A stretch of 64,000 bases of DNA from Candidatus Dojkabacteria bacterium (GTDB taxonomy: Bacteria > Patescibacteriota > Dojkabacteria > JAOAGR01): positions 131,237-195,236 of the forward strand of contig JAOAGR010000002.1 in the NCBI GenBank assembly GCA_026415655.1, in the 5' to 3' direction. The position numbers were made by a program, and so were the translations under genes. Shown one piece after another: positions 30,016-55,078 of the stretch. Position 1 is the first letter of the stretch, and each line of letters starts with the position of its first letter. Under the pieces are notes generated by a model that was not told the DNA's origin, did not search any database, and was given only the letters and a program-made list of their open reading frames with translations.

Positions 30016-31399
30016 TTGATGTCGAATGATAACTACGTTAATCAAATAGTTTCACAGCTACAAGCTGGCATTCCAGAGCAACAAATCTACAACAACCTAA
30101 TAGCTAGTGGAATTTCAAATGATGCAGCCATAAATTTGTTGAATAATGCCAAATATTTGATGTCTTCCATCCAAAATTCGTCTCCTCAGGGATCATCGGG
30201 TCAGTTTAATTCTAATTTTCAGAATAGTGTTCCTAATATGCAATATTCTGGACAACCAGGTCCTAGTCCTGTGAATTTTATGTCGCCTAATTTACAACCT
30301 AATAACCACATTCCAAATAACATTAATTATCCATTGGAAAGCATGAGTTCAAATACTGCAGGAGGATTTGGTATGAATATGCTAATAGTTGGACTTTTGA
30401 TTTTTGGAGTTTTGCTGTCTTTTGTCTCATATCTTGGACTGGCGTTTCCAAACCTAGATTTAAATGGATTTGAACTGTCAAAATTTTTTTGGTTGGTTGG
30501 TGTCTTATCATTAGTATTATTTATCATTCCCTCCGCAATTTTGTTATTCGTTAATAAAAATAAAATATCTAATTTTTTAGTTGTGGTAATAAGTGTGTTT
30601 TTGTCGATGTTTTTGGTACTTGCAAATACAGGTGCTGGGGCATTTTTGTCATTTAGAGATTCTTCTGCACAAAATCAAGAGAACAACACTAATTTGTCTA
30701 AGAATGATGATGAAAAGACGCAAAAAGAGAAAAAAGACGATCAAAAGTCTAACCCTTCACCAACAAATACTCCAAAAAAAAACTCCAACATTCACTCCCA
30801 CTCCTACTCCTACAGCGAGACTTACACCTACGAGAACAGCTCCAATACCAACTCAAGGTCCTGACTATCAAGAATATTTAAATTACTTAGAAAACAATAC
30901 TTATCGTTATACTAATACACAAAATAGATTTTCTTTGAGGATTCTCAATACTTTAAGAAAAGTGTTTACAGATAATACCGATCCTAATAATTACTCAGAA
31001 ACATTTGGTTCTTCTGACGGTAATACATCTTTATCAATTATATATGGTAAAAATCAAAATAATTCCAATGATTTTAGAAATGTATATAGTTTATTGAATG
31101 ATATTGAAGATTCAATAAAATCATCAAATAAGAATCTTGGTGTTACTTGTAATGTTCAAGATGTAAAAGTAGAATATGTTGTTTGTCAGTATGTTACGAC
31201 TCTTCCAAATGGAAAGTATGCATATGTGGTTCAAACTGTTATACCAGATCAGAGAGATTATTCAGGTATTGTTGTGTTGACCGGACTTTTTTTGATACAA
31301 AATCCAGAAGCAGCGGAGAATTTGTTCAATGAAGAAAAATTTGCTTTATTTATAATAAGTATAGGGGTTTATTCAGCTTATACCATTGAATTTAATTGA
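30016..31399 (+). CDS. Membrane/surface protein split by a +1 frameshift at an A9 tract (30774-30782). N/Q-rich N-terminus, TM helices, Pro/Thr linker, C-terminal globular domain.
   Basis: Track ORFs 30016..30864 and 30593..31399. The PT-rich linker ...SPTNTPKK continues as TPTFTPTPTPTARLTPTRT... only in the +1 frame after the A9 run. An A8 allele would give one continuous ~465 aa protein. Confidence 0.6.
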
Positions 31400-38049: not shown

Positions 38050-38275
38050 ACAATATCATTTTAGTATATTGTATAAACTATTTGCAGAATATATAACTTG
38101 TTTTTATATTAAATATGTAATGTTATATAAAGATAATATAGCCTTTGTGTAATGTTTATAATGATCAAGATGTAATAGAATTGTGTTATATAAAAATATG
38201 TTAGAGTTATAGTTGATGGGAGAGTAAGGTTGGCACAACTGATTAAATGTATTAGAATACTATACTATGTTTAGT

Positions 38276-38773
38276 ATGCGCGAAGACTTTTCCTACGCAA
38301 TCGATGAACAAGAGATTGCACGTGTTCTTTGACGATCTATAGATTACTCTGTTCCTCACCCATGCCGTATTGTATTAGGTCCTGATGGAATAAGTTTCTA
38401 TGATACCAATCCTAAATCTGTTACACCTGATGGAAGTAATGAGAATGGTAAAATAGAGTTTACTGGTTGTAGTACAGAAGATGGACGTAATTTACTGGAA
38501 TTATTTAAAGTTATGGTGCAATCAATAGCGGCGGGTTATATTCAATTACCAGATTTAAAGGAAGTAAAGGTTATTAGCACTATTGAGGTAGTTGAAGGAG
38601 CATATCTATTAGCATGCGCAGTCGCAGCATTTGGAGAGAACGATTCACCATTGGCATGTCCAGTAAGATATACAGACAGAATAGAAACGTTGTATAGAGG
38701 GTATGAAGTACCAAACACTTATGAGGCCAGGGTAGACAACAACGGATTTATTCTTCATTTAAAGTATAAATAA
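38276..38773 (+). pseudogene. High-GC-family hypothetical gene (paralog of 4301..5023) interrupted by an in-frame TGA at 38330-38332. The track calls only 38513..38773.
   Basis: ATG 38276 gives MREDFSYAIDEQEIARVL, then TGA, then 60 stop-free in-frame codons (RSIDYSVPHPCRIVLGPDGISFYDT...) joining the called ORF. Paralog similarity spans both sides of the TGA. Elevated GC. Confidence 0.55.
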
Positions 38774-38787
38774 CCTAAGAATTAAAG

Positions 38788-40179
38788 TTAAGTTATATGA
38801 TCTTCTAACGTACTTACTTTCGTTCTCAATCTATCCGCCTCTTCCCATCTTTTCTCAGCACGTAACTGATTCCATTGGGATTTTAATTTATTTATTTCAT
38901 TTTCATGTGGATTTACTAAGTTTTCTCTAATCTTTAACCCCAGCACCTCATCGAAGCTTAAAATTTGTTTTAATTTTTCATCAACATTAATGTTTTGATC
39001 TTTTAATAACTGAAAAAACACACCCACCGCTTTTGGGACATTGAGATCATCTGCAATCGCATTTTCGAATTCCTGCTGATAAGTATTTTGTAATTTTTCC
39101 GATGGAACATTGTTAGAATCAGAAAATGAGGATAATCTAAATAATTCTCTTATTTGCTTGTATATTTTTCTTAGAGCATTTTGACTAGCGGTCAGAGAAT
39201 CAAATGTAAAGTTTAGTTGATCACGATATTTATTTTGTAAATAAAGCAATCTTAATGCTAATGGATGAAAACCTTTTTCTTGTAAATCACTTAAAAGATA
39301 TGTGTTGCCAAGAGATTTACTCATCTTTTGTCCTTCAACCAAAATATGCTGATGATGTAGCCAATACCTAACAAACTGCTTGCCTGATACACCTTCGCTT
39401 TGGGCAATTTCATTTGTATGATGAATGTTTATGTGCTCAGGACCACCAGTATGTATGTCTATTTGTTCACCCAACAGTGCAAATGCCATAGCACTGCATT
39501 CGATATGCCATCCCGGGAATCCATCTCCCCAAGGGGAATCCCAATGTAATATATGATTTTTGAATCTTCCAATTCTTTTAAACCACAAAGCAAAATCATA
39601 TGGTTTTTTCTTTTGTGGATCAACATTGACTTCATCTCGAGCTGCCTGGATAAGATCTTCTAATTTTTGTTTAGAAAGTCTTGTGTAATTTTCAAATTTA
39701 TCTACTTCAAAATATAACGCTTCATTAGTTTCATAGGCATATCCTTTCTCCTTCAGGATTTTGTTCATTTCAATCATTTTCTGGATGAATTCTGTAGCTC
39801 TTGGTCTATATGTGGGATGAGTAATATTTAGTTTTTCTACATCTTCGAGATATTTTTCAGTAAAAAACTGAGCTATTTCTAAAGGTGACTTACCATATTT
39901 TTTTGCTCCTTTTTCAAGTTTATCTTCGCCTTCATCACTATCACTTGTCAGATGTCCAACGTCGGTAATATTCATGACATTTATAACTTCATAACCTAAA
40001 TATCTAAAAATTCTAGCCAGATAATCCGCAAATACTGCAGAGTAGAGATTACCAATATGTTGATAATCATAAACTGTTGGACCACAACTGTATATTTTTA
40101 CCTTACCATCTTCTATGGGAATAAATTCTTCTATTTTACGAGTTAGAGTGTTAAATAAATAAATTTTTAACATACTCAA
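38788..40179 (-). CDS. cysS: Cysteinyl-tRNA synthetase
   Basis: HIGN (HIGH) motif, KMSKS motif, Zn-binding Cys residues. Length 463 aa. Confidence 0.93.
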   Translation of the reverse strand: MSMLKIYLFNTLTRKIEEFIPIEDGKVKIYSCGPTVYDYQHIGNLYSAVFADYLARIFRYLGYEVINVMNITDVGHLTSDSDEGEDKLEKGAKKYGKSPLEIAQFFTEKYLEDVEKLNITHPTYRPRATEFIQKMIEMNKILKEKGYAYETNEALYFEVDKFENYTRLSKQKLEDLIQAARDEVNVDPQKKKPYDFALWFKRIGRFKNHILHWDSPWGDGFPGWHIECSAMAFALLGEQIDIHTGGPEHINIHHTNEIAQSEGVSGKQFVRYWLHHQHILVEGQKMSKSLGNTYLLSDLQEKGFHPLALRLLYLQNKYRDQLNFTFDSLTASQNALRKIYKQIRELFRLSSFSDSNNVPSEKLQNTYQQEFENAIADDLNVPKAVGVFFQLLKDQNINVDEKLKQILSFDEVLGLKIRENLVNPHENEINKLKSQWNQLRAEKRWEEADRLRTKVSTLEDHIT

Positions 40180-41483: not shown

Positions 41484-42590
41484 TTACTTTAGGTATGCGA
41501 CTAAATTTTGTTCTAATCCTTTTTCTTTTAGTTTTCTTATAGCTTTTGCTTCAATTTGTCTTATACGTTCTCTTGTTACATTAAATTCTGCCCCTACTTC
41601 TTCTAAAGTTCTTTGCACACCATCATTTAGTCCAAATCTTAGTTCTATTACTTTTCGCTCACGATCTGATAGTTCACTAAGTGCTTTTTCTAGTTCGTTT
41701 TTTAAGTTCGTGTACTCAGCATAGTCATGAGGGGTTGTTGTGTTTTTGTCAGCTATTATTTCTGCGAGAGATGATGAATTATCATCACCTATGGCCATTT
41801 GTAAAGATGATGGATTTTGAGAGATAGTTTTTATTTCGATTACCTTTTCAACATCAATTCCCATCTCCTTGGCGATCTCTTCTTCTGTTGGTTGTCTTTG
41901 GAGTTTTACAGCAAGTTGTGAGACAATTTTATTAAAGGTATTAATGGTTTCTATCATATGTACAGGGATACGTATAGTACGAGCTTGATCGGCAATAGCT
42001 CTTGAGATTGCCTGTTTTATCCACCACGATGCATATGTCGAAAATTTGTAACCTTTTTTGTAATTAAATTTTTCTACGGCTCTCATAAGCCCGACATTTC
42101 CCTCTTGGATAAGATCTAAAAGATCTAGTCCTCTTTTGTCATATTTTTTGGCATTACTTACAACTAGCCTCAAGTTTGCTGTTATCAAAAACTGGGCGGC
42201 TTCTTGATCTCCCTCTTCTTTTCTTTTGGCTAGTATCACTTCTTCTTCTGCAGTAAGTAGTGGTATACGTCCTATTTCCTGTAAATAGGCTCTGATAGGA
42301 TCTGTCGCGATATTTGCTTGTATGCTCCTAAAAATCTTAATTTTATCCTCAAGAGTCATTGTATTTTCTGGTACTTCCTCAGGTTTTACACTTTCGTCTA
42401 TTCCTGTGATTTCGATGTGATTATGATAAAACTCGTAGATTATATCCTCGACTAAATCAATATGGGCTTCCGGATCCGGTAAGATTTCTAAAAATTGATT
42501 AACATTTATAAATCCTTGAGTCTTGGCAATATTTAGAATTGTATTATATATTTTTTCCTCTTTTTGTTTCTTGCGTTCCATAGTTATCAA
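41484..42590 (-). CDS. rpoD: RNA polymerase primary sigma factor (sigma-70)
   Basis: Region 2 with the -10 recognition helix ([19 protein letters not shown]), region 3, and region 4.2 HTH ([28 protein letters not shown]). Length 368 aa. Confidence 0.92.
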
Positions 42591-42665
42591 ACTAAAGGTT
42601 TATTATATTTAAAAATGAGAAAATAGTCACCATATATTTAGTAAATATCAGTTATATTTGGATCA

Positions 42666-42742
42666 TGGAGGCACGAGCGGGATTCGAACCCGCGAATAGC
42701 GGTTTTGCAGACCGCCGCCTTGGGCCACTTGGCTATCGTGCC
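42666..42742 (-). tRNA. tRNA-Cys (GCA), CCA encoded
   Basis: Reverse complement gives acceptor ggcacga/tcgtgcc, anticodon stem gcggt/accgc with loop ctGCAaa, T-arm gcggg-ttcgaat-cccgc, discriminator U + CCA. Confidence 0.85.
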
Positions 42743-43050
42743 GGACTCAAATACCTAATTATGCAATATTATACAAATAAAATCTATGTGCAAGATTTGA
42801 GGTTTGCAAGTGTCAGTTTGAGTTTTAACTTAATGATGAGTAATGAGAAAGGAGTATGAATATTTGTACTTTATTTGATTTCTATAAATTTCTTAACGTG
42901 GAGATTGAAATATAAGTTAAGAATGCAAAATTTAAATTAAATTTTTCTTACACAAAATGATGCTAGTGCCATGTTTAAATTTGCATTCATCTTTGGATGG
43001 GTGTCCAATCTCACAGAACGCGTACGATCGATCATATGGTTTATAGCATT

Positions 43051-43614
43051 TCATTGATTTGGGTTGAATGGTAAAAAATTGTAGGCTTTAGATAACTTTT
43101 TTATTGCCTCAGGAGAAACTTGATCTGGAGTAGCCACGTCGATAATTATCAAGTATGGTGGACCATAATCAACTAGTGATTGAGCTATCCTTAATTGATT
43201 GTCTGCTCCATATGTTCGGTTTCTTGTTAAGCCTATTGCTGCGGTAAAGTTATTAGATTCGGCATTGTAATATTGATTCCCAAATACGTTTTTCAATATT
43301 GCAGCAATGCTGATTTTATTATTTTTCAGAAATTTTTGTATAGTTGTTTGTATGGTTGAAACTCTAAATCCACATAAAGGTGAAAATCCAGTAAAGGGAT
43401 TCCTCAGAGTATGTACTTGTTCTTTTATTCTTCTATTAAAATCTTGTTCATCAACAAGTGCTAGACTATAAGTACAGTCTTGTATATCAGGATAATATAA
43501 TACATGAGGTTCTGTTTTAGCGGATATCTCAGCTAGGATTACTGCGTCGCCCCAATATAACAAATCATCTACATCTGGCCCACTACCCAAAACTGCAAAG
43601 TCGTACAACCCCAT
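43051..43614 (-). CDS. Hypothetical protein with moderately elevated GC. Possibly related to the 45429..46037 ORF and the high-GC family.
   Basis: 187 aa. The N-terminal LYDFAVLGSGPD (strand plus Gly-rich loop) resembles LFTIVFAGCGKF of 45429..46037. The C-terminal IIIDVATPDQVSPEAIKKL resembles IEIDVPNNVITVTLKLL of 4301..5023. Adjacent to tRNA-Cys. Confidence 0.45.
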   Translation of the reverse strand: MGLYDFAVLGSGPDVDDLLYWGDAVILAEISAKTEPHVLYYPDIQDCTYSLALVDEQDFNRRIKEQVHTLRNPFTGFSPLCGFRVSTIQTTIQKFLKNNKISIAAILKNVFGNQYYNAESNNFTAAIGLTRNRTYGADNQLRIAQSLVDYGPPYLIIIDVATPDQVSPEAIKKLSKAYNFLPFNPNQ

Positions 43615-43743
43615 ATTTTAAATAACTATTATATGACGAAAGGTAAATCAATATTAAACTTTTAATGATATCTTTGTTATAATCTAATTGCCCATCGACA
43701 TTTAGGTGATTTGTGTTGAGGTTGTCGATGGGTACTCTGCATC

Positions 43744-44745
43744 TTGTACAGATTTCATAATTTTGATAAAATAGGTACTAATATGACAACGACAGATAAA
43801 AATCAAGATAATCAAAATCTAAATCAAAATCCAGAAACACTAGAGTCACAAATTAATAGTGTGCCAGCCACATCTGGACCAATGGCTGAATCAAACAGAC
43901 CGGATGATGAAATTAATCAAATTAAAACTAAAGTTGCGGATGAAGAATCTCAGGTTATAGGTAAAGATATAGAATCTCCTACAAAATCAACGTCTGATGT
44001 TCAATCAGTTCCACAACAGGAAATAAAAGACGATACAAATACGAATTCATCAGAACAGAGTGCTAAAACTAATGTAAATAACACAAATCCTATAGAAAAT
44101 GCCTCAAATCAAATATCTAATTTTGTAAATGAAACTTTGTCAGGTGTGATGCCTAGCAACCAACAAGGTCAGAATAATCAAAATGAAAAAAACAAAAAGA
44201 TAATTTTGTTCGGTATTGTTATTATTGTTATATTATTAGTATGTTGTATATTGTATGTACTTGGTATAACTGTGTTTAAATCAGCTTATGATGGCCTTTT
44301 TGGCCCTTATGGAAATAAACAACAAGATGTAACGCAGCAAAATGCTAACAACAATAATAAATCAGAAGAGAATGATAATAATGATGACACTAAAATTACT
44401 GGAGAAGACAGGAGGGTAAAAAGAGATTTCGTGAAGATATTTAGCGCATCAGGTGATAGTGGCACTAGTTCATCTACAGAAAGCTTCACTGTTAAGGAAA
44501 AAAAGAATCTCAAGTTTGTAGGTACATACAAAAATGTAAGTAGATTTGGATCTTGTGTTATGACTGTCTTAGTTAAAGGAGTTACAGATCAAACTTATTT
44601 CAGTTATGCTCAAACGGTGGAAATACCTAAGGGTGAGGAAAAGACACACGAATCCATGGTTTATAACGTACCCGGTGGTGAATATTATCTAAATGTAAGT
44701 GGTTATGGGTGTGAGTGGAAGGTTGATGTGTATGAAGCAAAATAA
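43744..44745 (+). CDS. Single-TM membrane protein with a long N/Q/S-rich N-terminal region and a small Cys-containing C-terminal domain
   Basis: 333 aa. Low-complexity Q/N-rich aa 1-150, TM (IILFGIVIIVILLVCCILYVLGITVF), and a C-terminal domain with Cys pairs. Confidence 0.55.
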   Translation: MYRFHNFDKIGTNMTTTDKNQDNQNLNQNPETLESQINSVPATSGPMAESNRPDDEINQIKTKVADEESQVIGKDIESPTKSTSDVQSVPQQEIKDDTNTNSSEQSAKTNVNNTNPIENASNQISNFVNETLSGVMPSNQQGQNNQNEKNKKIILFGIVIIVILLVCCILYVLGITVFKSAYDGLFGPYGNKQQDVTQQNANNNNKSEENDNNDDTKITGEDRRVKRDFVKIFSASGDSGTSSSTESFTVKEKKNLKFVGTYKNVSRFGSCVMTVLVKGVTDQTYFSYAQTVEIPKGEEKTHESMVYNVPGGEYYLNVSGYGCEWKVDVYEAK

Positions 44746-45123
44746 GAGTAGTATTGTATTAGTTTATATTTTTGAAATTTTGATGTTTTATGCTGATATG
44801 TTATGAATTTGTTTCTTCTTGCTTGTCTAGTTTATCTAGATTTTATTCTGATTAGTTATCATTGTGTCATAGAATTTGTTTTCTGTCGTACCAAGATAAT
44901 AATCAAAGGTCTAATAAATCAATGAACAACACGACAAAGCACCAGAGTATCTTTTAGTTCAAATATGTTGGGATTAAAATAGCGCTAGATAATTTCAATA
45001 AGAATAAGTTATACCTTGCAATTCTCAGACCCATAATCATCTAGATATTTTATTACAGTGATAATTTACATCTATCCGTGTATTATAAAATAAAAATATT
45101 CAAAATATATTTTAAAATTAACT

Positions 45124-45199
45124 TGGTGAGGCGTACTGGACTCGAACCAGTGACAGGCTGCTTAAGAGGCAGCTGCTCTACCGACTGAGCTAACGCCCC
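45124..45199 (-). tRNA. tRNA-Lys (CTT), CCA encoded
   Basis: Reverse complement gives acceptor ggggcgt/acgcctc, D-arm gctc-agtcggt-agagc, anticodon stem gctgc/gcagc with loop ctCTTaa, T-arm actgg-ttcgagt-ccagt, discriminator A + CCA. Confidence 0.85.
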
Positions 45200-45428
45200 A
45201 AGAAAATCTTATGTATTTTATAACAAGATTAATATATGGTAAATAGATTGTAGAAATTAGATCTATTAATTCATTCAACCTGTAGCCTAAGCCACTATGA
45301 ACTTATGAGAATTCGTGATCCCAATCCGATCCTTATTCCACTGTAAAAACCATCAAATGTGTTATTTCTGTTTAGCAAAAGTCTTTGCTACTAAAGTGGA
45401 GATGAATGTCTCAACGCCTGAATATATT

Positions 45429-46037
45429 CTATCTGGTTCGTCTTGTGAAGGCGCTTACGTAAATACAGCCTTGATATGGTGTATTGGGGATGTTTGGATG
45501 GGGTAGTACCTTAGGTGCGCCAAATGGGTCCTCTTTTCGTATGGCTTCATAGCTTTGTAATACCTCAGGTTTCAATTGTATTTCTTGCATTTGTTCTCTT
45601 AGTTTTTCTAGAGATGCCACGACTACCGGCTTATGGACCTCTTCAGGTGTGTATGAGTCCACAAATAGGGCGCCCTTAATTTGTCTCTGCAAGCCAATAC
45701 TTTCTAATAAGGGTGGAATATTGTCGCTCTGATCACCTGGAAGACAGAGTACATTCCGTGCCACAACGTAAATAGGGCCGGGATGTTGTGAGACTATTTG
45801 TCCAATTGCGTCGGAGAATGGTTGATTTGGATAGTATGTAACTTCCTTTAGTGAAGAATGATTGTCGATGTACAATCTGATAGCATGCAGCGGCATTTGG
45901 TTAATCAATTCCGCGTCATTAAAGGCTATACGGAACGACCCCTCTAATCCAAATATATTTTGCACCACGGCTACATAACCAATGTCAGATGGTGGAAATT
46001 TTCCACAACCTGCAAATACTATGGTAAATAAGTTCAT
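45429..46037 (-). CDS. Hypothetical protein, high-GC atypical-codon ORF, co-oriented with and immediately upstream of tRNA-Lys
   Basis: 202 aa with GC clearly above background. The N-terminal hydrophobic strand plus Gly-rich loop (LFTIVFAGCGKFPPSD) suggests a Rossmann-like fold. No assignable family. Confidence 0.45.
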   Translation of the reverse strand: MNLFTIVFAGCGKFPPSDIGYVAVVQNIFGLEGSFRIAFNDAELINQMPLHAIRLYIDNHSSLKEVTYYPNQPFSDAIGQIVSQHPGPIYVVARNVLCLPGDQSDNIPPLLESIGLQRQIKGALFVDSYTPEEVHKPVVVASLEKLREQMQEIQLKPEVLQSYEAIRKEDPFGAPKVLPHPNIPNTPYQGCIYVSAFTRRTR

Positions 46038-46267
46038 AGTTTTATATTATGCATTTTTATATCGGGGCTGTTAATCTATTAAGTTCATCAGAATAAACGA
46101 ATGCGATGAACTATAGACAAATGACGTCGTAGGCGACGTTGTTATTAACAAAATTAATGCGAGATAAATTTATGTGATAAAAGGCCCAAAAGTCGGTAAA
46201 AATATGATAATCGGTAAAAATATAAAATGTATTACCATTCATTTTTATCTTTGATAAAAATAATCCA

Positions 46268-46915
46268 CTAACGACAATTATCTACCTGCATAGATTGGGT
46301 TTTATCAAATAACCGTGCATGCTTTAGTGGTATAAGTACGGCAAAGATTTTGCCTTTTAATGTATTGACTTCAGGGTTTACAAACATAAAAACTCGTGAG
46401 TCAGAGCTTTCAGCTCGGTTATCACCAAGTACGAATAGATGTTTTTTAGGGACCTCGTATTCGACGCCCTCTTCCATGCGATCATTATTTCTTATTTCAG
46501 TTTTTCTGTCTTTAGGTAGATACCTTTCTTCGATTTCTTGGCCATTTACATAAACTTTTCCGTTTTCGATTTTTATTTTATCTCCTTCCATCGCAATTAT
46601 GCGTTTGATTAGATCTTGACCTTCACGTAATTGAAATACTATCACATCACCTTTTTGATAACCCGTAAAGTTTGGTGATAGCTTGTCAGTGATTACTACA
46701 TCGCCAGAGCAAAAGTTTGGCTGCATGGATACACCTTCAATGGTATGGGGAGAAAAGACAAACATGTTTAGTATTATCATTGTTGCCAAGCCTATAATTA
46801 GTACTTGGGCAAAGTCCATTATCCATGCAATGATAGAAGTCAAAAAACGAATAATGATATTATCACTAGATTGAAGTGTCTCGTAATGCGATTTTACAAA
46901 GTCTTGTGCTTGCAT
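46268..46915 (-). CDS. lepB: Signal peptidase I (S26 family)
   Basis: N-terminal TM, catalytic Ser/Lys regions, and box E GDNRAESSDSR. Length 215 aa. Confidence 0.88.
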   Translation of the reverse strand: MQAQDFVKSHYETLQSSDNIIIRFLTSIIAWIMDFAQVLIIGLATMIILNMFVFSPHTIEGVSMQPNFCSGDVVITDKLSPNFTGYQKGDVIVFQLREGQDLIKRIIAMEGDKIKIENGKVYVNGQEIEERYLPKDRKTEIRNNDRMEEGVEYEVPKKHLFVLGDNRAESSDSRVFMFVNPEVNTLKGKIFAVLIPLKHARLFDKTQSMQVDNCR

Positions 46916-54097: not shown

Positions 54098-55078
54098 ATG
54101 TCTCTAACACGCATAACAGAAAATTTGAGAAAAATGTTTCAAGGTTACTCAGTAGTAAATGTTGCCAGTGCAATATTTGAAATGTTTTCAATCTTGATGC
54201 CATTGTGCTCTCAGAGAGACGATTCATCTGACAATAGATTCGCCTGGACGAGCATAGATATTTATTCTTGCCAACATAGAGATCAAGAAATTAAATTTGA
54301 TGGTGTTAAAAGGATGGGACTATTCCAAAGATTACATGCCGCCGGTATTGCAAGGATAGTATATACGTTAGAAGGATATGGTCCTGCTTTTTTTCATCCG
54401 GCCTTCAGCGTTAAGCCTCCACAACCATCATCAGAGGAAAGTGTTCATAATTATTATCTGTTACTCTATTTTAATCTTGGAATAAAAAATTTTGTGCTTA
54501 GATTTCCTATTGGGACTTTGCATATTGATTGTGGACCAATAAAACAGCTAGAGACCGGTAAATTAATAGAATTGAATCAAGATAGATTAAAAGAATTGAA
54601 TCAAGATAGATTAAAAGAATTATCAGATTTACTACAAGATCAAAGATACGCTGTACAATTAGGAAGAGCAGCAATATTACCTGGATTTAGGCGTAGAAAT
54701 GCTGCTTCTAGGAATCATGCAATGAATGTAAATGGTTCAGATACTGGTAATATTTATCAAAAAGTAGGAAGGTTTGTGCAATCATTATTAATTGATATTT
54801 CTTCGTCACAACCACAACAAATATTCATAGTTTCACTTATAAATAAAGGTAATCAAGGTTCTTTGAGTGGATTCAAGAGAGTAGTAAGGGCAGCATTAAA
54901 TCTACAAACTGATGATGGTTTTGATAATTACATATATGCATTGCAATCACCTGAAATACCGTATTCTTATAGACATTTTATGAGATATTTTAGTGATATT
55001 AATATACTTGCTGTTCCCAGTCGTACAGTGAATCCTTCACAACATGAACAAACTAATGTCTCTACCAACATTACATAA
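54098..55078 (+). CDS. Hypothetical protein with elevated GC; contains a 24-bp tandem duplication and may be distantly related to the high-GC family
   Basis: 326 aa. Internal repeat ELNQDRLKELNQDRLK encoded by tandem 24-mers. Weak resemblance (QEI...YTLEGYGPAFFHPAF) to YILYEGVRIPDPRQIG of 4301..5023. Confidence 0.45.
   Translation: MSLTRITENLRKMFQGYSVVNVASAIFEMFSILMPLCSQRDDSSDNRFAWTSIDIYSCQHRDQEIKFDGVKRMGLFQRLHAAGIARIVYTLEGYGPAFFHPAFSVKPPQPSSEESVHNYYLLLYFNLGIKNFVLRFPIGTLHIDCGPIKQLETGKLIELNQDRLKELNQDRLKELSDLLQDQRYAVQLGRAAILPGFRRRNAASRNHAMNVNGSDTGNIYQKVGRFVQSLLIDISSSQPQQIFIVSLINKGNQGSLSGFKRVVRAALNLQTDDGFDNYIYALQSPEIPYSYRHFMRYFSDINILAVPSRTVNPSQHEQTNVSTNIT
54569..54622 (+). repeat. Perfect tandem duplication of a 24-bp unit (gaattgaatcaagatagattaaaa x2, plus a partial third)
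   Basis: Seen directly in the sequence. In-frame (8-aa ELNQDRLK repeat) inside the 54098..55078 ORF. Confidence 0.9.

Follow-up and report, generated by a model that had tools for sequence, protein, structure and literature searches.

Genus-restricted orphan genes beside tRNA-Cys and tRNA-Lys at the rpoD–lepB locus of Candidatus Dojkabacteria: a variable slot that was probably inherited vertically

We examined the interval between rpoD and lepB in a 64-kb stretch of the genome of a Candidatus Dojkabacteria bacterium, which belongs to the Candidate Phyla Radiation (CPR; Patescibacteria). Throughout, "the window" is this whole 64-kb stretch. The interval holds two tRNA genes and three protein genes: ORF_A and ORF_B (open reading frames A and B), both on the minus strand, and between them, on the plus strand, the gene for an asparagine- and glutamine-rich (N/Q-rich) protein with a single transmembrane segment. 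An original prediction, made from the sequence, had described this patch as the remnants of DNA integrated at tRNA genes or as a tRNA-associated gene family. We consider it probable that the patch is instead a variable slot of the core chromosome, specific to the genus and inherited vertically, and not an integrated element. The features of the locus are as follows.

41484–42590, minus strand: rpoD, with Sigma70 domains (Pfam)
42666–42742, minus strand: tRNA-Cys (GCA), CCA encoded (ARAGORN; Rfam tRNA, 67.1 bits)
43051–43614, minus strand: ORF_A, 187 amino acids, MCX8034881.1, hypothetical (ORF list)
43691–43732, strandless: perfect 10-nt inverted repeat (repeat scan), a candidate shared operator
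43783–44745, plus strand: N/Q/S/T-rich single-pass membrane protein, 320 amino acids (ORF list, composition, transmembrane prediction)
44746–45123: AT-rich, non-conserved spacer of 378 nt, 3′ of both the membrane gene and tRNA-Lys
45124–45199, minus strand: tRNA-Lys (CTT), CCA encoded (ARAGORN; Rfam, 69.4 bits)
45429–46037, minus strand: ORF_B, 202 amino acids, MCX8034883.1, hypothetical (ORF list)
46038–46267, minus strand: lepB–ORF_B spacer of 230 nt, with a terminator-like hairpin and a promoter-like site
46268–46915, minus strand: lepB, with a Peptidase_S26 domain (Pfam)

The predicted order and coordinates from rpoD to lepB were all recovered by ARAGORN, Rfam, the ORF list and Pfam, and the two spacers expected at ~380 and ~230 nt measured 378 and 230 nt. 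The frame of the membrane gene, predicted at 43744–44745 (+), was also recovered; the TTG start at 43744 is less likely than the ATG at 43783, because the latter is called on related contigs and because other strains carry a 1-nt deletion at 43760, within the TTG extension. The window as a whole is 31% GC. The flanking genes with a Pfam match are rpoD, rplJ/L, cysS, lepB, a His_Phos protein gene, leuS and dnaE; rplJ/rplL/cysS are the outer neighbours on one side, and the His_Phos gene, leuS and dnaE those on the other. MCX8034881.1 and MCX8034883.1, which together correspond to locus tags N3A71_01160 and N3A71_01175 of a Candidatus Dojkabacteria metagenome-assembled genome, are identical to the window proteins. 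A search of the Dojkabacteria literature returned nothing bearing on the rpoD–lepB locus. On Logan contigs a 64-amino-acid ORF is called at 42665–42859 (+), antisense to tRNA-Cys; since tRNA sequence is GC-rich, this call is almost certainly spurious.

We compared the locus with two related lineages. One is a sister species, L008 (GTDB species representative CAZDBO010000001); the other, L009, is a third lineage represented by a 1.9-kb Logan contig that covers lepB, ORF_B and tRNA-Lys only. In both, lepB is 91% identical to that of the window. Across the DNA of lepB and the His_Phos gene, the window is 81–83% identical to L008 and L009, and these two are 87% identical to each other. Gene order in L008 is identical to that in the window (lepB, ORF_B region, tRNA-Lys, membrane gene, ORF_A region, tRNA-Cys, rpoD), and L009 has lepB, an ORF_B homologue and tRNA-Lys. 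The order is therefore kept in the sister species and, in part, in the third lineage; typical composition, which the original prediction had coupled with conserved order as the mark of a resident locus, does not extend to ORF_B. Nucleotide identity to L008 is 80–90% for housekeeping genes, about 70% for ORF_A, 30–45% for ORF_B and 40–55% for spacers. The spacer at 44746–45123 is 40–54% identical to its L008 counterpart, and contains no Rfam match and no attachment-site (att)-like repeat.

We estimated synonymous divergence per site (dS) and its ratio to nonsynonymous divergence (dN/dS) between the window and L008 by the Nei–Gojobori method. For ORF_A and the membrane gene, dS was 0.8–1.4, and for rplJ, cysS, rpoD and the His_Phos gene it was 0.8–1.3. 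The dS of ORF_A and the membrane gene is thus that of their housekeeping neighbours, indicating that these genes diverged along with the chromosome and were vertically inherited. The housekeeping genes had dN/dS values of 0.02–0.09.

All three protein genes are orphans. None of the products has a match in Pfam, NCBIfam, PHROG, PADLOC or the Protein Data Bank (PDB), and the profile searches that had been proposed for ORF_A and ORF_B assigned neither to a family. In a word-seeded search of 5.8 billion proteins, copies of ORF_A occurred only in its own 90%-identity cluster, the listed members of which differ at 1–2 residues; the membrane protein occurred only in its own and the sister species, and ORF_B only in its own species. 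An exhaustive phmmer search of 1.84 billion representatives added one real relative of ORF_B outside its own species, the L009 orthologue (P0011). Three further phmmer matches were rejected as artefacts: they are long tandem-repeat proteins whose matches consist of numerous short segments. We found no paralogue elsewhere in the window by tblastn, and metagenome scans with the ORF_A alignment and with the lepB alignment were both empty. The label "accessory" given to the patch is borne out, in that all three protein genes are limited to one genus-level lineage and evolve fast, and ORF_A and ORF_B are broken in relatives.

Every test that we ran argues against the claim that the patch consists of remnants of DNA integrated at tRNA genes, whether it concerned att repeats, recombinases, mobile relatives, the side of insertion, synteny or dS. 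Partial duplications of tRNA 3′ ends (attL/attR-like direct repeats), for which a search had been suggested, were not found in the 64-kb window: neither of the 23-nt 3′ ends, of tRNA-Cys and tRNA-Lys, has a second copy there at up to 3 mismatches, and none of the repeat families in 42400–46400 includes either tRNA gene. The statement that no integrase is present holds for the three patch ORFs (Pfam, NCBIfam, PHROG, PADLOC), and no recombinase was found among these ORFs or the Pfam-matched genes of the 10-kb flanks, all of them housekeeping, a few flanking ORFs with no match remaining unexamined. Searches by tblastn of 50,697 phage records and 72,556 plasmids, made with ORF_A and ORF_B and leaving out the membrane protein, returned no relative, and scans of IMG/VR with the ORF_A and ORF_B family alignments likewise returned none. 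No empty site, that is, no presence/absence polymorphism, was seen among relatives, the comparison being with genus-level relatives only. Islands that target tRNA genes lie 3′ of the tRNA. ORF_B sits 5′ of tRNA-Lys, the wrong side for such an island.

These results also bear on the possibility that the patch is a degraded, old prophage or genomic island that was inserted at tRNA-Lys, tRNA-Cys or both ahead of the divergence of the three lineages, and that has since lost its integrase and att sites. As in tRNA-targeted islands and prophage remnants, lineage-restricted orphans adjoin tRNA genes (two tRNA genes, and all three ORFs), and the composition of ORF_B is atypical; the decay of ORF_A and ORF_B described below would also fit an old element. 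Unlike such islands, the patch has no integrase among its ORFs and no duplicated tRNA 3′ end, has ORF_B on the 5′ side of its tRNA, is syntenic in related lineages with core-gene synonymous divergence, and shows no phage or plasmid homology for the two proteins searched. ORF_B is the only part of the putative cargo with atypical composition (z = +4 for GC content at third codon positions, GC3); ORF_A and the membrane gene have native composition as well as the dS of their neighbours, and the C-terminal domain of the membrane protein is under strong purifying selection. Overall, we regard an old, degraded element as unlikely.

The tRNA-Cys gene is identical in L008, and the segment directly 5′ of it (~42757–42795), which contains TATAAT, is largely conserved there. 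The tRNA-Lys gene has a promoter-like segment of its own at 45215–45243 (TTTACC-17-TAAAAT), and the gene with ~45 nt of 5′ flank matches L008 at 97% identity and is also kept in L009. The promoter-like segments of both tRNA genes are kept in relatives irrespective of the ORFs, and the adjoining spacers are not. Since each tRNA gene has its own conserved promoter-like segment, the adjacency of ORFs and tRNA genes need not be functional and may be incidental. Four independent Logan contigs (L002, L006, L007 and L009) terminate within tRNA-Lys, at 45131–45160. These breaks fall in conserved tRNA sequence, as k-mer sharing produces, and so we do not read them as insertion junctions; they probably reflect de Bruijn graph branching on tRNA sequence common to other genomes or copies, a further point against an old element at this site.

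The membrane protein agrees with its description as an N/Q-rich single-pass protein: N makes up 11% and Q 7% of its residues, and it has one strong hydrophobic segment, at about residues 135–170 of the 320-amino-acid form. Constraint differs greatly along the gene, with dN/dS of 0.17 for the whole and 0.018 for the last 110 codons. The N-terminal half is low-complexity and diverging, with insertions and deletions (indels). On this pattern of substitution, the C-terminal domain of ~110 amino acids is judged to be functional and strongly conserved. The motif KNKK ahead of the transmembrane segment suggests that this domain is probably extracytoplasmic, on the cell surface, which would leave the N-terminal half in the cytoplasm.

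ORF_A and the membrane gene are transcribed divergently, and the spacer between them contains a palindrome, CCCATCGACA-N22-TGTCGATGGG, with perfect 10-nt arms (43691–43732). The palindrome is unique in the window, where 0 are expected by chance, and has no Rfam match. It lies in a 44-nt block that is 100% identical to L008, as compared with 40–55% for other spacers; apart from the tRNA genes with their promoter segments, no other non-coding sequence in the patch is as well conserved. Because the palindrome lies between the divergent promoter-like sites of ORF_A and the membrane gene, it is plausibly an operator that serves both.

Although weakly constrained, ORF_A is a real protein gene. It has a dN/dS of 0.16–0.34 with a dS of 0.8–1.1, and the corresponding region of L008 is 60% identical at the amino-acid level once two frameshifts are corrected. 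No transmembrane segment is predicted. ORF_B, which also has no predicted transmembrane segment, is far more diverged: its regions in L008 (with one frameshift) and L009 are 31–35% identical at the amino-acid level, and in L009 the frame is interrupted by a TAA at about codon 27. For ORF_B, dN/dS could not be computed because synonymous sites are saturated; the proportion of nonsynonymous differences (pN) is 0.52, close to neutral. In L008, three frame disruptions fall within the ~1.2 kb of ORF_A and ORF_B, and none in ~11 kb of flanking genes. The disruption of both genes in relatives suggests that both may be dispensable and that the sister lineages are losing the family. Within the window's own species, by contrast, each examined Logan contig that spans ORF_A and ORF_B has them intact.

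We considered whether the two ORFs are already nonfunctional in the window genome, their still-unbroken frames drifting towards loss. Near-neutral divergence of ORF_B is in keeping with this, as are its displaced stop codon in a close strain (contig L006), the disruption of both genes in relatives, the lack of a clear Shine–Dalgarno sequence upstream, and strain-level changes that are all nonsynonymous (2/2 in ORF_A; 9/9 and 1/1 in ORF_B). However, the dN/dS of ORF_A implies purifying selection through most of its history, a chance open frame of 202 codons at 42% GC would arise without selection at about 4e-6 per frame, the frames are intact in all of the spanning contigs examined, and motifs are conserved in three lineages. 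We therefore regard loss of function in the window genome as very unlikely.

The composition of ORF_B is unusual. Both minus-strand ORFs had been said to have elevated GC; this is so for ORF_B, with GC of 0.424 and GC3 of 0.369, the highest of the 45 ORFs tabulated, and not for ORF_A, with GC of 0.349 and GC3 of 0.234 (the other 42 ORFs of the window have GC of 0.319 ± 0.035 and GC3 of 0.233 ± 0.034). ORF_B also has the most negative coding-strand GC skew among the window ORFs. High GC in a 31% GC genome, together with this skew, could indicate that the 45.4–46.0-kb segment encodes a structured non-coding RNA and not a protein, an alternative that we tested and rejected as extremely improbable: the segment has no Rfam match even at E <= 1, its folding energy equals that of shuffled sequence on both strands (z = −0.23 and +0.41), its 202-codon frame is open, and across lineages the nucleotide sequence is not conserved and the amino-acid motifs are. 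The motifs of ORF_B kept across the three lineages are I[VI]xGGCG, IFG, NVLCxP, DSYTP and a basic C-terminus. Retention of amino-acid motifs in three lineages, with no excess RNA structure, indicates that ORF_A and ORF_B encode proteins or once did so. On inspection we rejected a candidate lipoprotein signal in ORF_B (FAGC), since the Cys comes after only 10 residues, a charged n-region is lacking, and polar residues occupy this position in the orthologues. A negative coding-strand GC skew like that of ORF_B was also seen for ORF 30016–30864 (+), with GC3 of 0.336 and 14.5% Asn; it overlaps ORF 30593–31399 in another frame, and may be mis-framed or an atypical gene.

The lepB–ORF_B spacer is 230 nt in the window, compared with 40 nt in L008 and about 30 nt in L009, and is thus ~190 nt longer than in relatives. 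It contains a terminator-like hairpin at 46124–46139 and a promoter-like site at 46046–46074, directly 5′ of the ORF_B ATG. With both elements in the extra spacer sequence, ORF_B may now be an independent, near-leaderless transcription unit in the window's species.

ORF_B also stands out in comparisons between strains. Over 10.9 kb, Logan contig L006 matches the window at 99.4% identity, and almost all differences between the two lie in two orphan genes, one of which is ORF_B. Here L006 has 9 nonsynonymous and 0 synonymous substitutions, 2 substitutions just 5′ of the gene and 2 inserted nucleotides that displace the stop codon, all within 45433–46072. This tract carries 11 substitutions per 640 nt as compared with 7 in 9.3 kb of background, a ~20-fold excess (Poisson P = 5e-12), which weighs against a slot that has simply been inherited with the chromosome: relaxed constraint cannot raise the rate above the neutral background, and the excess needs recombinational import of alleles, diversifying selection or local hypermutation. 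The same reading does not lead one to expect GC3 of 0.37 against 0.23 ± 0.03 in an old native gene, all the more so as the orthologous regions in relatives are only about 30–31% GC. Moreover, the comparison covers only three closely related lineages, and an integration predating their split may fit it too.

The substitution cluster, and a GC3 anomaly that is absent from the relatives' regions, leave room for ORF_B to be a diversifying, exchangeable locus, at which several diverged alleles coexist and are exchanged through homologous recombination or xenologous replacement, with a host or a phage perhaps exerting selection. Its raised GC3 would then reflect recombination that is frequent and acts either by GC-biased gene conversion or by importing sequence from a GC-richer relative. 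The confinement of the changes to one tract, the highest GC3 in the window, the lengthened 5′ spacer and a second orphan gene with the same strain-level pattern, at 54098–55078, are consistent with this idea. However, neutrality can accommodate the 9:0 ratio taken by itself (0.76^9 = 0.085), the disruption of ORF_B in both relatives fits loss and not an arms race, no base is consistently favoured among the substitutions, the databases searched contain neither a donor allele nor any other homologue, and the known alleles number three. We consider this explanation doubtful. We rejected ORF_B as the target of a diversity-generating retroelement: the substitutions are mixed in type with no adenine bias, and no segment of ORF_B occurs a second time in the window to serve as template, making such a system unlikely. 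No search for a reverse transcriptase was made in this test; the Pfam-matched genes within ~10 kb of ORF_B are housekeeping.

The second hot spot of strain-level variation, ORF 54098–55078 (+), encodes a 326-amino-acid orphan with no Pfam match. It differs from L006 by 16 substitutions, with 15 nonsynonymous changes among which one is nonsense, and by indels. In L006 the frame is split into 185 + 92 amino acids. A 24-nt unit encoding the tandem repeat LKELNQDR changes in copy number, a 15-nt TTG-repeat insertion is present in L001, and a 3-nt deletion is shared by L001 and L006. Between eno and cysS (38050–38790), a 165-amino-acid orphan ORF with no Pfam match is found in L001 (17264–17761); in L007 (6387–6884) it is split into 86 + 52 amino acids. 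Four strain-level substitutions cluster at 38241–38578, and this locus looks like another decaying or variable orphan.

We also asked whether ORF_A and ORF_B are paralogues, as had been proposed. BLASTP gave no significant match (E = 0.15), and signal appeared only with family profiles. In an hhalign comparison of the ORF_A and ORF_B family alignments (A1 versus A4), the two were collinear over 144 columns with P = 0.013 and a probability of only 3%, and three blocks fell in register: the N-terminal strand with its Gly loop, I..F....ILKNV with ARNVLC, and IIIDVATP with LFVDSYTP. Column-shuffled profiles reached the observed score in 1 of 300 trials. The best pairwise Smith–Waterman comparison between the families had z = 4.6, which 0 of 500 shuffles reached. 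With an empirical p of about 0.01, these alignments are suggestive of distant paralogy. A tRNA-associated gene family, the second proposal for the patch, draws weak support from this level of paralogy, and the tRNA adjacency is perhaps incidental.

The Gly-rich N-terminal motifs noted in both proteins are real and kept in orthologues (YDFAVLGSGP in ORF_A; I[VI]xGGCG in ORF_B). In Rossmann-like nucleotide-binding folds, a GxGxxG-type loop comes after a beta strand; examples are motif I of class I S-adenosylmethionine-dependent methyltransferases (hhDhGCGxG) and the FAD/NAD-binding GSGPxG motif. By eye, each ORF resembles this in its N-terminal hydrophobic strand and the Gly-rich loop behind it (YDFAVLGSGP; IVxGGCG), and the later hydrophobic-strand segments ILKNVF/ARNVLC and IIIDVATP/LFVDSYTP recall methyltransferase motifs II and III. 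We treat this as a lead and claim no membership: unlike Rossmann-like proteins, both lack the third glycine of GxGxxG, and no hidden Markov model library supports the assignment, nothing relevant being found in Pfam (E <= 10, five family members), NCBIfam or a PDB profile search. Single-sequence AlphaFold2 models had pLDDT values (per-residue model confidence) of 36 and 40 and were unusable; Foldseek matches to them, all with E > 0.5 and TM-scores below 0.25, were uninformative. A broader proposal would join these strands, making ORF_A and ORF_B ancient paralogues in an undescribed, genus-restricted alpha/beta family, with ORF_B hypervariable and exchanged by recombination and acting with 54098–55078 as a strain-diversifying determinant. 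We hold this combination to be distinctly unlikely.

Taken together, the data favour a vertically inherited slot, in which tRNA-Cys (GCA) and tRNA-Lys (CTT), each with its promoter-like segment, would be fixed anchors with the three orphan genes between and beside them. The membrane gene would encode a functional single-pass protein with a low-complexity, cytoplasmic N-terminal half and a conserved surface C-terminal domain. ORF_A would be transcribed divergently from it across the conserved palindrome, which possibly co-regulates both, and ORF_B, possibly a distant paralogue, would be evolving near the neutral rate. ORF_A and ORF_B, intact in the window's species and frameshifted or stopped in sister lineages, would be dispensable members of a family under loss. 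Lineage-specific orphan genes are common in CPR genomes, and the locus is an ordinary feature of this kind, orphan genes in a variable slot, with ORF_B its one modestly unusual member. Like CPR orphans generally, these genes are small, family-less, confined to a narrow clade and fast-evolving, and lie amid conserved translation and replication genes. Unlike typical CPR orphans, ORF_B combines the highest GC3 of the window with a local excess of all-nonsynonymous strain substitutions, and ORF_A and ORF_B may be ancient paralogues.

At the rpoD–lepB locus, the combination of tRNA adjacency and unannotated ORFs does not indicate an integrated element; because this combination is not diagnostic here, counts of genomic islands should leave the locus out. 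Within it, three genus-restricted orphan families experience contrasting regimes, a strongly conserved, probable surface domain, a weakly constrained gene and an almost neutral gene, and ORF_A and ORF_B provide a clear case of gene loss under way in sister lineages. ORF_B and 54098–55078 hold nearly all of the strain-level variation in ~20 kb of near-identical genomes. If the exchange of ORF_B alleles were real, these two genes would form a small group of determinants that diversify strains, for instance in the interaction of an episymbiotic CPR bacterium with its host or with phages; and if diversifying selection is at work, both would be candidate interaction determinants in these poorly known, uncultivated bacteria.

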